A stretch of 64,000 nucleotides of DNA, taken from Candidatus Latescibacterota bacterium. Lineage in GTDB: Bacteria; Latescibacterota; UBA2968; GCA-2709665. Shown here piece by piece: positions 38,004-41,175 of this stretch. The stretch lies in the NCBI GenBank assembly GCA_965203805.1, contig OZ241917.1:256001-320000 (forward strand). Reading direction: 5' to 3'. Numbering within the stretch: position 1 is the stretch's first letter; each line of letters begins with the position of its first letter. The notes below the pieces were generated by a model. It made no database searches and had not been told where the DNA came from. It saw nothing but the letters and a program-made list of their open reading frames with translations. A program made the position numbers and the translations under genes.

Positions 38004-38037
38004 AGAAAAAACACGCTGATTTCAGCGTGTTTTTTCT
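38004..38037. terminator. Bidirectional-type intrinsic terminator ending the redox operon
   Basis: AGAAAAAACACGCTG-ATTT-CAGCGTGTTTTTTCT. Confidence 0.85.
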
Positions 38038-38057
38038 ACGTAATGACTACCTTCAAT

Positions 38058-39038
38058 TCAGGGCACGCGTTTGCCGAAGTTTTTCGCGAATTCCAGAAAG
38101 TCGCGAAAGTCGACCAGCCCGCTTCCGTCAAGGTCGAAGGTGGCGTTGTCGGTGTTGAAGGCCTGTGCGAATGCGATGAAGTCGCTGAATCCGATTTCGC
38201 CGTCATTGTCGAAGTCGGCCCGGGGATTGACGGGGACGATGACGGCCGTTCCGGAGAACGAGACGGTAATGCTGCGGTTTTCAGGGTCGTTGCTCAGAAT
38301 TGTGAGGGTGCCGGAGAATGGACCGCCCTCCGAGGGTGTAAAGGTGATATCGACGGTCCCGCTGTCGCCGGGCGCGACCATGAGTCTCGTGCGGCTGAAC
38401 GTGACGCCCTCGAGGTCGGACTCCATGTTCGAAATCCTGAGGGGCTCCCCTCCGGTATTCTTCACGACGAGGGTAAGGGTCCTGGCTTCTCCGGCGGGAA
38501 CGTCCTCGCCTAAGTCGAGAGATGTATTGGCGAGGCTGATTGCCGGCGGCGCGACGGCCAGCAATCCCCGGATACTCGTCGCCGCGGCGCTGAGACCGGA
38601 AGCGCCGCGGCCGATGTGCCGGACGATCCCTTCACGGTCCGCGACCAGCATCGTGTGGGTCCCGTGAGATCCCCTGACACTGCCTGCCTTAAGCAGGAGG
38701 GGAAACGTGATCGAAGTCGTTGATTGAAATCCTTGAAGTTGGGACTGACTGCCATTGTAGATGTCGAGCCCCAGGACCGCAACGCCGTCATCCTGGAACG
38801 CCTTCCAGATCTGCTGTTCAATGGACGGACCCGCCGCCCTGCAGGTGGGTCAGTTGTGGCCCAGGTAATAGAGAACCAGAATGCTGCCCTTGTAATTCGC
38901 GGTGGCGTAGGTTTTCCCGTCCAGCCCCGTCAGCGAGAAGGTGGGCGCCGCGTCTCCGACACTCTGGGCTTCGGCGGGTTCCGGCGGGTTGAGTCCGAAG
39001 AGCAGAAGAAACACAAGGCACGTCGCGATTCGACTCAT
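38058..39038 (-). CDS. Secreted selenoprotein: AhpC/TSA-TlpA redoxin (UxxC) + Ig-like domain + double EF-hand/dockerin-like domain
   Basis: ORFs 38850-39038 and 38058-38651 are in one frame and separated only by TGA at 38852-38850, read as HN-U-PTC; signal peptide; SD AAGGAGG; 326 aa. Confidence 0.85.
38823..38849 (-). promoter_or_regulatory. Candidate bacterial SECIS element
   Basis: UGA + 10 nt + stem GGGCGG / loop CGGGU / CCGUCC; loop starts 16 nt from UGA, with G at loop position 2. Confidence 0.65.
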
Positions 39039-39071
39039 CGAAGGCCTCCTTTAAGAAAGTGAAGGTTTGTG

Positions 39072-40655
39072 TCAGAAATAGGTCTTAAAACGCATTTCAA
39101 GTCCATTGAACGGCAATACCTGATAGCATGTCCCCGATGTACACGCGGCGCCGCCCCGCCTCCGGCCGGCGAAGACGAGGGCTTCGTATCTGTCGAGGAA
39201 GGCGGCGTTGAGATTGACCGCCACCCAGGTCCGCGACCCGGTTTCGATCCGGTCCGTCGTGGCGCTATCATCCACTTCGAACGGGTCGTTGGTGCGATCC
39301 AGAACGAGAGCGGCCCCCACGCCCGAGGGATGCTGGAATGAAAACTGGGCATACACGTCACGGAACGTCGGCTCGTTTCGGGGAAGCCTTGCCGCGCGTC
39401 GGACCTGCAGATCGAAGCCCGTGACAGCCCCGCCGGGTGCGATGGACTCGATTCCCGCGCCGGCAATCCTGTGCATTCGGATGCCCTTCAATTCGTCTTT
39501 GCCCCAATCCACGAACAGGCTGGTCGAAATCGCGCGGCCGTGGTCTTCCGGGTGGTGGTCGATGTCCAGGCCGACGTACCGTTCATTGAAAGTCGTCGCG
39601 AATCCGGGCGCCAGTTCGTTCTTCCCCTTACTGATGTTTGCCGTCAGCGTCCCCAGCCCGAAAATCGAATACGTGGCCTCCGCCTGATAGCCCGTTTCCG
39701 TATCGGCAATCAGGGCATGGGTGGCCCGGTTGAGCAGGACGGCCGAGTGTTCGCGGACCAGGGAAGGGGGATCGTTGAAACTGAAGGCGAAATTCTCATA
39801 GTCCTTGTATTCCAGGCTGAGACCCAGGTTGGAAATCCCGGCGTTTGCCGAAAGATACAGAGCGCTGCCGTCCACGTGCACGTCGTTCAGCCCTGCGTAT
39901 TCCGCGTATACGGTCGCGTACAGGTCAGAGAATCCGGATGCTTCAAATGCCGGCGTGACGTCCAGCTCCAGGAAACCCGACCACGATCGGGTCGAATCAA
40001 GCCCGGAGGCGTGGTGACTGACGGCCGTAACACCGGCCTTAATTTGGCTGGCAGGCTGAAGCGAGACCTCGCCTCCGACCAGCCAGCTATCGCGCCGCGG
40101 CAGGTCCTGGAGCGGGTTGCCCACTCGAACCGCGGGCGGAATGTCACTTAATACGGGTCGCCCGATCAGGGCTTTGGCCCCGGCCCGCGGCCCCGTCCAG
40201 GTGGCCATGCCTCCCTCGAGGTCTCGCGAAGGCGAATAGCGTCGCCGGTATTGCCCGCTCTCCAGAATTACGCCCGGCAGATCGAATGCCCTGAGCGTGA
40301 TACCCCGACCCAGGATGGCATAGTAGTTGCCCGCAACCAGTTCGGCGGGTCCATGGGTCCACCGCAGTTGTTTCTGGGCCAGATGCACAACCTGGTATTC
40401 GACCTGTGAAAGCGGCGAGTCGCGACCGGTGTTGCGCCATGCGTTGAAAATCTCGGCCTGCAGGCCCGCCTGAAATTCACCCCGGGTGTAACTGATATCG
40501 AACTGTTCGTAAAGGTTCGAAATTGCAAGCGAATCCGAGCCCGGTACGCGTCCCCGCTGGACTTCGGTCAGGCTGGATGCAGTCACCTGCGCGACCGCGG
40601 GCTGCGCCGTCGACAGCAGTATTGGCACGATCAGGTTATTGATCAGCGCTCGCAT
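39072..40655 (-). CDS. DUF6029-like outer-membrane beta-barrel protein
   Basis: Signal peptide, GNYYAILGRGITLR, EYKDY, C-terminal RRGGAACTSGTC and terminal Phe. Confidence 0.7.
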   Translation of the reverse strand: MRALINNLIVPILLSTAQPAVAQVTASSLTEVQRGRVPGSDSLAISNLYEQFDISYTRGEFQAGLQAEIFNAWRNTGRDSPLSQVEYQVVHLAQKQLRWTHGPAELVAGNYYAILGRGITLRAFDLPGVILESGQYRRRYSPSRDLEGGMATWTGPRAGAKALIGRPVLSDIPPAVRVGNPLQDLPRRDSWLVGGEVSLQPASQIKAGVTAVSHHASGLDSTRSWSGFLELDVTPAFEASGFSDLYATVYAEYAGLNDVHVDGSALYLSANAGISNLGLSLEYKDYENFAFSFNDPPSLVREHSAVLLNRATHALIADTETGYQAEATYSIFGLGTLTANISKGKNELAPGFATTFNERYVGLDIDHHPEDHGRAISTSLFVDWGKDELKGIRMHRIAGAGIESIAPGGAVTGFDLQVRRAARLPRNEPTFRDVYAQFSFQHPSGVGAALVLDRTNDPFEVDDSATTDRIETGSRTWVAVNLNAAFLDRYEALVFAGRRRGGAACTSGTCYQVLPFNGLEMRFKTYF

Positions 40656-41175
40656 CGGAGTCTGCCTCGTCGTCGGTGCCGGAGTCGGGGAAAAGCGCTT
40701 CGACTGCAGCCAGCAACACATCGGCGTTTTTCGAATTGTATCCGACCTGCCGCAGCGCAATTTCACCATCCGGCGTGATCAGCAGCGTCGTGGGAAGGAC
40801 GTTCACCTGCATTCGCCGCATCACCGCGCTGTCGGAGTCGAGGGCGATGGGGAAGCTGACCTTTCGCGCCCTGAGGAACGGTTTCACCCTGTTCTGTCCG
40901 CGCGGACCGTCCACGTTGACGCCAAGAACCGTGAGCCCGGATTTTCCATATTTCTCGTGGATCTTCTGGAGCTTGGGCATTGCCTTGATGCAAGGCTTGC
41001 AGTAGGTCGCCCAGAAGTCCAGGAGCACGGGACCCTTTGCCAGCAGGGTCTTGAGGTTGACCCGTTCGCCCCGCAGGTTCCGGAGATTGAAATCGGGGGC
41101 GGGGGCGGCGTTCACGGATGCGGAAATCAGCGTGATTGAGGCGGCAAGAGCCAACGATTGAACGGTCGATTTCAT
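40636..41175 (-). CDS. TlpA-family disulfide reductase, exported
   Basis: Signal peptide, APDFNL, LLDFWATYCKPC, LPTTLLITPDG. Confidence 0.9.
   Translation of the reverse strand: MKSTVQSLALAASITLISASVNAAPAPDFNLRNLRGERVNLKTLLAKGPVLLDFWATYCKPCIKAMPKLQKIHEKYGKSGLTVLGVNVDGPRGQNRVKPFLRARKVSFPIALDSDSAVMRRMQVNVLPTTLLITPDGEIALRQVGYNSKNADVLLAAVEALFPDSGTDDEADSDASADQ

Follow-up and report, generated by a model that had tools for sequence, protein, structure and literature searches.

A putative thiol/selenol redox module around a DUF6029 outer-membrane barrel in a Latescibacterota bacterium

TlpA-type proteins are reductants, and their usual electron donor is DsbD. In selenoprotein thiol:disulfide oxidoreductases, UxxC replaces CxxC within the thioredoxin fold, and homologues carrying cysteine exist. 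To our knowledge, the described Gram-negative reducing pathways stop in the periplasm, and we know of no account of how reduced thiol enzymes are maintained outside the outer membrane. Surface-exposed TlpA/ResA-like thioredoxins fed from the cytoplasm are described for the CcdA-Etrx1/2-MsrAB2 system of Streptococcus pneumoniae in PMC3914529. For the DUF6029 family of barrels, a role in polysaccharide export was proposed from HHpred likeness to Wzi-type barrels (PMC9603273). The present analysis concerns three genes in a stretch of 64,000 nucleotides from a Candidatus Latescibacterota bacterium (contig OZ241917.1, positions 256,001 to 320,000), referred to as the window. All three lie tightly packed on the minus strand and encode, in order, a TlpA/ResA-like protein, a DUF6029 barrel and a ResA-like protein whose reading frame contains a TGA. 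Sequence comparison suggests that they are best explained as one envelope thiol/selenol redox module around an outer-membrane barrel, and a joint role of their products in outer-membrane thiol/selenol chemistry is likely. A relay leading from the TlpA-like protein through the barrel to a surface redoxin is a partly supported, possible but tentative reading of this module. Full-text literature searches found no functional study of it.

The three-gene unit and its conservation

The features of the locus, in window coordinates, are as follows.

40636..41175, minus strand: TlpA/ResA-like predicted periplasmic thiol:disulfide reductase, 179 amino acids (aa), with a WATYCKPC active site (translation and Pfam)
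40990-41001, minus strand: CKPC codons of the TlpA-like gene, residues 59-62
39072..40655, minus strand: predicted DUF6029 outer-membrane beta-barrel, 527 aa, 24 strands in the model, PF19494 match
39126-39143, minus strand: CTSGTC codons of the barrel gene, residues 505-510, 17 residues ahead of the C-terminal Phe
38058..39038, minus strand: predicted exported ResA-like selenoprotein, 326 aa, TGA at codon 63
38850..38852, minus strand: in-frame TGA, read as selenocysteine, codon 63, context H-N-U-P-T-C (GHN-TGA-PTC)
38823..38839, minus strand: hairpin resembling a selenocysteine insertion sequence (SECIS), GGGCGG[CGGGU]CCGUCC, +14 to +30 from the U of UGA
38004..38037, minus strand: intrinsic-terminator-like hairpin with a T-run, closing the three-gene unit, 15-pair stem

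The TlpA-like and barrel genes overlap by 20 nucleotides (40636-40655), and a gap of 33 nucleotides (39039-39071) separates the barrel gene from the third gene. This arrangement of linked, co-oriented genes ending in a terminator had been described in an initial annotation made from the sequence alone, which proved correct in every detail checked; the CKPC, C-terminal CTSGTC and UPTC motifs were each found by translation in the gene to which they had been assigned. The terminator call rests on the position and strength of the hairpin and not on the scan statistic, as four terminator-like sites were found in the scan against 3.6 expected by chance. Signal-peptide-like N-terminal segments, judged by eye, are present in all three proteins. 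Each of the three genes is partly covered by contigs from RNA libraries (three libraries from two studies), and a contig piece without differences (38882-39148) spans the junction between the barrel gene and the third gene. Pieces from relatives span the TGA, and some parts of the window are without RNA-contig cover. DNA nearly identical to this stretch occurs in runs labelled as sponge, coral and marine metagenomes.

The first protein scored above the Pfam cut-offs for AhpC-TSA (86.8 bits), Redoxin (71.6) and Thioredoxin_8 (52.2), and remained under the NCBIfam cut-offs for ResA (NF002854, 103.7 vs 170) and TlpA (NF047696, 51.7 vs 230). The name TlpA, as applied to it on these scores, denotes a likeness and not a family assignment. 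Its matches in the PDB include ResA structures (2e-21) and 2m72 (3.6e-17), and the thioredoxin fold, the WCxxC motif and the export signal (by eye) of the TlpA/ResA/DsbE-like class were all found in it. The PDB chains 2yp6, 4hqz and 4hqs ('thioredoxin family protein'), which we take to be Etrx1/2, match both the first and the third protein. In a quick tree, the TlpA partners of the barrel formed a single clade separate from the third proteins (support 100). The genome also encodes one full-length DsbD with its N-terminal, membrane and thioredoxin domains. As a separate observation, the TlpA-like proteins have an acidic C-terminal tail of low complexity, such as ...PDSGTDDEADSDASADQ in the window (40636-40700), which is also seen in a clade of about 50% identity (L042, L043, L051), and in the barrel an invariant run of basic residues, RR(R), comes before the cysteine hairpin. 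The acidic tail and the basic stretch may form a docking pair.

Conservation of the gene neighbourhood was assessed in 78 related loci, the distinct loci among the best 80 of 271 confirmed matches. They originate from Latescibacterota, Gemmatimonadota, Eisenbacteria, one Cytophagia genome and one Rhodothermales genome. A TlpA-like CxPC gene adjoins the barrel gene in all 78, with CKPC in 73 and CQPC, CGPC or CAPC in the remaining 5, and this adjacency is far beyond chance. Five gene orders were observed; the third gene may follow in the same orientation, lie upstream, diverge from tlpA or run convergently. Such rearrangements have not broken the linkage in Latescibacterota, Gemmatimonadota, Eisenbacteria and Bacteroidota, which argues for a shared function. 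Among 29 Bacteroidota loci, which are part of the returned sample after an unpublished genome was dropped, a TlpA-like WCxPC gene adjoins the barrel in 25, and at least two of the four remaining loci are truncated where their contigs end. A DUF6029 match was obtained in 85 of 151 sampled genomes of the window's own phylum and in 39 of 167 genomes of the phylum to which the Cytophagia genome belongs (38 of 166 without the unpublished genome G310).

These counts uphold the earlier statement that DUF6029 co-occurs with a TlpA-like gene. The broader expectation of redoxin partners in the neighbourhood held for the TlpA-like gene, which is constant, and did not hold throughout for the third gene, which is missing from the flanks of part of the 78 loci. 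The initial annotation had further named Omp28-like proteins beside the TlpA/DUF6029 pairs of Bacteroidota. The pairs do recur, but weak Omp28-like neighbours make up only 3 of 24 Bacteroidota neighbour open reading frames, all under the Pfam cut-off, and the third protein of the window is ResA-like. The gene upstream of tlpA in Bacteroidota (L120, L122, L124, L129; L111, L113, L115, L116; 1.5 kb flanks) is often one of two kinds, encoding either PEGA together with DUF1223 or a weak Omp28-like domain (below cut-offs), or a sorting domain of the type IX secretion system (T9SS).

Probable selenocysteine and destination of the third protein

The TGA of the third gene very probably encodes selenocysteine, as judged from the genome and from comparison of orthologues. 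The genes selA (559 bits), selB (371) and tRNA-Sec (73), all above cut-off, are clustered next to one another on the minus strand of this genome (G000:C1:1837983-1841498). In the column of U63, 48 of the 78 related loci have TGA, 5 have cysteine only (TGT/TGC), 1 is ambiguous and 24 are without the gene in their flanks. Loci L034 and L047 hold cysteine copies alongside TGA copies, and a full-length public cysteine homologue (P0086) reads GHNCPVC. Of 51 distinct orthologue sequences, 50 can form a hairpin with a stem of at least five pairs at the same place after the TGA, and the stem sequences are unrelated between clades. The SECIS-like hairpin score reaches at least 6.5 in 98% of the orthologue sequences vs 39% of shuffles. 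The stem in the window comprises 6 pairs, with G23 and U24 in its loop, a placement that presumably resembles that of the Escherichia coli fdhF element. Folding of the single sequence after the TGA was no better than that of shuffles (z -0.04), and the Rfam gathering scan returned only rRNA and tRNA, with no family matching the hairpin. The hairpin is convincing because of the comparison across orthologues and not because of single-sequence folding. Taken with the selenocysteine genes and the TGA/Cys column, it shows the UPTC codon behaving as the selenocysteine codon for which it had been taken.

Public gene calls for this family (P0087-P0111) start after the TGA, which corresponds to window positions 38058-38849, and are named 'choice-of-anchor D domain-containing protein' at 197-241 aa. 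The catalytic redoxin domain is therefore missing from these calls, and the redoxin family of this selenoprotein is invisible in current annotation. Additional copies were also noted. A second tandem selenocysteine paralogue (UDLC or UNLC) follows the UPTC gene in L027, L028, L039 and L040 (7.6-8.6 kb), the window having one such gene, and L047 (6.6-9.7 kb) carries three copies of the third gene, of which one has Cys and the others TGA. Elsewhere in the window's genome, at G000:C1:4220148-4220639, another frame of the AhpC/TSA family also contains one in-frame TGA and is probably a further selenoprotein.

The third protein consists of a signal peptide, an AhpC-TSA/Redoxin thioredoxin fold (27-147) with U63-P-T-C66, a choice-of-anchor-D/DUF1573 immunoglobulin (Ig)-like domain (~165-264) and a dockerin/EF-hand-like tail (~268-326). 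The tail scored 14.0 vs a cut-off of 22.9 for Dockerin_1, 24.4 vs 29 for dockerin_GC and 26.8 vs 25.4 for EF-hand_1. The dockerin-like module has 57 matches in the genome, and since some of these copies sit near N-termini, it reads as an anchoring or binding unit and not as an export tag. At G000:C1:3944023-3948936, at least five paralogues of ~350 aa follow one another in tandem, each with the module near the N-terminus. Two other assignments of the third protein were rejected. As a peroxiredoxin it reached 23.6 vs 140 with the best peroxiredoxin equivalog, and U63 occupies the position of the ResA-type CxxC. As an Omp28 member (PF11551) it gave no match at E <=0.1, and its nearest solved relatives are ResA/TlpA-like. 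It was above cut-off for none of the selenoprotein models of NCBIfam.

The tails of the orthologues bear on where this redoxin acts. Of 14 third proteins scored for the T9SS type A sorting domain (TIGR04183), 7 exceeded its cut-off, with L135 as a further example; the tailed orthologues belong to Gemmatimonadota, Eisenbacteria, other Latescibacterota and some Bacteroidota. In the lineage of the window, the tail consists instead of one or two choice-of-anchor-D Ig domains and the dockerin-like module, and TIGR04183 was not found in the window's third protein in Pfam and NCBIfam scans. The genome holds 13 T9SS sorting domains. The surface location proposed in the initial annotation is thus well supported for relatives by their predicted T9SS C-terminal domains, whereas for the window's own protein, which has no such domain, exposure is only plausible. 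A literature search on selenoproteins in combination with type IX secretion found nothing related. In the third proteins of L090 (2436-4352) and L096 (2425-4344), the UxxC thioredoxin fold is separated from the T9SS tail by an inserted domain like that of serine beta-lactamases and penicillin-binding proteins.

If the third protein did not leave the periplasm, the barrel might import an oxidised sulfur or selenium compound or a disulfide substrate, with both redoxins acting on it in the periplasm and the tails serving other ends. The ordinary Sec-type signal peptides of both redoxins are in keeping with such periplasmic chemistry, and so is the dockerin-like module of the window's protein, which is not a dedicated C-terminal export tag. 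However, the sorting domains of the T9SS-tailed orthologues point beyond the outer membrane, and the cysteine pair of the barrel is modelled on the outer side. Chemistry confined to the periplasm is therefore regarded as unlikely.

The barrel, its cysteine pair and the proposed relay

The barrel scored 54.1 bits on DUF6029 (PF19494) vs a Pfam cut-off of 27, which bears out its earlier assignment to this family, and PF19494 is present in all 81 barrel homologues save two fragments. Its C-terminus, ...GGAACTSGTCYQVLPFNGLEMRFKTYF, ends in RFKTYF with an aromatic last residue. The protein has only two cysteines, C505 and C510, both within CTSGTC. Together with G508 they are invariant across 44 aligned homologues, down to 27% identity, and in 52 sequences taken from the loci, Bacteroidota among them; C-x2-G-x-C also stands about 20 residues from the end in each of the 27 Bacteroidota proteins whose C-terminus is complete. 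In a wider sample, taken from the best 150 of 417 cluster representatives found among 1.84 billion proteins, 124 appear to have a complete C-terminus, and 122 of these contain the CxxGxC motif. One of the two exceptions has an unrelated tail, and in the other (P0234) both cysteines are replaced, by Tyr and Phe, with the motif otherwise intact. The mature part holds exactly 2 cysteines in 85 of 93 full-length representatives. The conservation of CxxGxC, on which the initial annotation had made its proposal depend, is thereby established for these samples.

The alignment-based AlphaFold2 model of the barrel reached a mean predicted local distance difference test score (pLDDT) of 87.7 and a predicted template modelling score (pTM) of 0.83, while the single-sequence model (pLDDT 31) was not usable. 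DSSP assigned 24 long strands to it. Model and sequence agree with an outer-membrane barrel of ~500 residues with a C-terminal aromatic residue. A crude amphipathicity predictor yielded too few strands, and a PDB sequence search with the barrel profile gave no match up to E 10. Usher pores have 24 strands, and the best fold matches of the model, aligned over residues 22-527, were FimD (Z 19.0; root-mean-square deviation 4.6 Å over 362 residues) and PapC (Z 18.3). They were followed by 18-stranded OprD/Occ channels, MtrB (Z 14.5, 363 residues) and Wzi (2ynk, Z 13.4); the identities of these matches, 7-13%, indicate a likeness of fold only.

For the orientation of the barrel, both termini were taken as periplasmic, as in other outer-membrane barrels; the family is nearly without indels, and the variation of loop length gave no orientation. 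The long connections of the model (116-145, 169-191, 288-319, 456-474, 500-515) are then all extracellular, and the turns on the opposite side have 2-7 residues, except for the 12-residue connection 233-244, which includes a short helix. The strand parity is supported because long loops and short turns fall in the usual pattern of barrels. Residues 500-515 form a small two-stranded ribbon (502-506, 509-513) that extends strands 23 and 24; an S-G turn makes up its tip, and two invariant glycines, G497 and G518, lie at its base. With this orientation of the model, the cysteine pair would lie at the tip of the last extracellular hairpin (beta23-beta24) and not at the periplasmic rim, or be folded into the lumen from the outer side. 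The most conserved loops are 116-145 and 288-319 (GRG...D145; NDPPSLVREH...LLNR.TH), and conserved polar residues form a ladder along strands 13, 14 and 24. The lumen of a circular 24-stranded barrel is estimated at roughly 35 Å, about the size of a thioredoxin fold.

The resemblance to ushers, which pass folded domains, could mean that the usher-sized barrel is a dedicated export pore for the folded third protein or for the TlpA-like protein itself, the latter keeping the cysteines of the cargo reduced. The lack of a T9SS domain in the window's third protein would suit such a pore. The sorting domains of the orthologues, however, imply another export route, the barrel has none of the plug, N-terminal and C-terminal domains of ushers, no Usher match was found in it among Pfam models at E <=0.1, and 24 of 78 loci lack a linked third gene; an export pore is considered very unlikely. 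The match to Wzi recalls the role in polysaccharide secretion that a study of outer membrane polysaccharide export (OPX) proteins proposed for DUF6029, on the HHpred likeness between DUF6029 and plug-less Wzi-like barrels near OPX genes (PMC9603273). Wzi ranks under many unrelated barrels in the present comparison, though, and the constant neighbour of the barrel is TlpA, with no OPX/Wza genes beside it in the loci read. In the window, the neighbours are tilS, ftsH and a GFO/IDH/MocA oxidoreductase. The gene neighbourhoods read here do not support a polysaccharide-export role, and a secretion porin of this kind appears highly improbable.

The position of the cysteine pair is open to a further explanation, in which the barrel is a redox-gated or disulfide-stapled channel that transports a solute, a peptide or a polymer, and the cysteine hairpin is its lid. 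The TlpA-like protein and the selenoprotein would make, break or protect the bond of the lid, or keep the cysteines reduced during biogenesis, and there would be no electron flow to substrates outside. A pair at an extracellular hairpin tip, flanked by G497 and G518 as a possible hinge, fits such a lid, as does the simultaneous loss of both cysteines in P0234. The two most conserved loops and the polar ladder are what would be expected of a specific pore. Against this, a structural disulfide would not require two dedicated thioredoxin-fold partners conserved across four phyla, and proteins of the TlpA type are reductants, yet the pair was lost in just one of 124 sequences. A gated channel is considered rather unlikely.

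In the relay reading, the barrel would be an outer-membrane platform that couples periplasmic reducing power, delivered from DsbD to the TlpA-like protein, to a redoxin at the surface. The coupling may occur via the cysteine hairpin of the barrel, or via the two thioredoxin folds meeting in the wide lumen, and the selenol or thiol enzyme at the surface would thereby go on reducing disulfides or oxidants outside the cell or on its surface. This reading fits the gene content, the direction of TlpA-type chemistry, the surface tails of the third proteins and the size of the barrel. In the model, the cysteine pair appears well placed to meet a surface redoxin. Several observations nevertheless weigh against the relay. 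By the parity of the model, the pair is extracellular and tens of angstroms from the periplasmic TlpA-like protein, which could therefore reach it only if the hairpin dips into the lumen or if TlpA itself enters the lumen. The C-x4-C arrangement across the hairpin tip has the geometry of a structural cross-strand (or switchable) disulfide, and the natural variant P0234 lost both cysteines together. The tail of the third protein here is a dockerin-like module, which is no proof of surface exposure. The third gene is not within 5 kb in 24 of 78 loci, mostly of one clade (~50% identity) with tilS directly after the barrel gene; unlinked homologues with a UxxC thioredoxin fold, an Ig domain and a dockerin-like tail (33-40% identity) were found in 4 of 4 such genomes checked. 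Moreover, the 78 loci are mostly close kin and not independent, and the RNA-library contigs may stem from carried-over DNA.

Two observations concern the surroundings of the module in the window. A complete rRNA operon (16S, tRNA-Ile, tRNA-Ala, 23S, 5S) lies at 46825-52849, 5.6 kb from the module. Open reading frames of 491 aa (42857-44332, minus strand) and 356 aa (45529-46599, minus strand) have no Pfam match at E <=1e-5; they are possibly shadow frames, the DNA being GC-rich.

Comparison with described systems

The module occurs in at least four phyla, including symbionts of sponges and corals. A barrel that has its own invariant cysteine pair, and beside which each of the related loci read encodes a dedicated reductase, offers a concrete, testable candidate for the missing outer-membrane step of reducing pathways, and the module may reveal a route for reducing power to the cell surface. 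The most specific form of the relay, a haem-free electron conduit running from DsbD/TlpA via the cysteine hairpin of the 24-stranded barrel to a surface selenoprotein and conserved across the Fibrobacteres-Chlorobi-Bacteroidetes (FCB) phyla, is rather doubtful at present. If the relay is true, it would be the thiol/selenol counterpart of the MtrCAB porin-cytochrome complex, with cysteine and selenocysteine replacing haems, and would also echo DsbD of the inner membrane.

The known pathways that lead from DsbD/CcdA to TlpA, ResA and CcmG are likewise cascades of cysteine pairs that move electrons across a membrane; the first gene of the module is TlpA/ResA-like, and DsbD is encoded in the genome. 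Those cascades, however, end in the periplasm, none of them is known to include an outer-membrane barrel with a cysteine pair of its own, and the barrel is not a DsbD homologue. In the thioredoxins of S. pneumoniae, similar proteins act at the surface, but the organism is Gram-positive, and its system, which has no outer membrane in its way, involves neither a barrel nor selenocysteine. Vesicle proteome lists of Porphyromonas gingivalis give PG2175 as a thioredoxin-domain protein and PG2174 as uncharacterised, and in the literature searches these locus tags turned up only in such lists. The known thiol:disulfide selenoprotein families share with the third protein the UxxC thioredoxin fold and the existence of cysteine-form homologues, whereas the third protein is fused to Ig and dockerin-like or T9SS tails and tied to a DUF6029 barrel.

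Among systems with large barrels, the ushers FimD and PapC (3ohn, 2vqi) gave the best structural matches, and 24 strands were counted in the model. At 9% identity, however, the DUF6029 barrel is without plug and N- and C-terminal domains, and no chaperone or pilin genes lie nearby. In MtrCAB (PDB 6r2q), redox proteins of the periplasm and of the surface are connected through a large barrel, as is proposed here, and MtrB matches the model with Z 14.5. The module differs from it in having no haems or cytochromes, in its 24 strands and in its cysteine pair, so that the resemblance between the two is one of fold and logic only.

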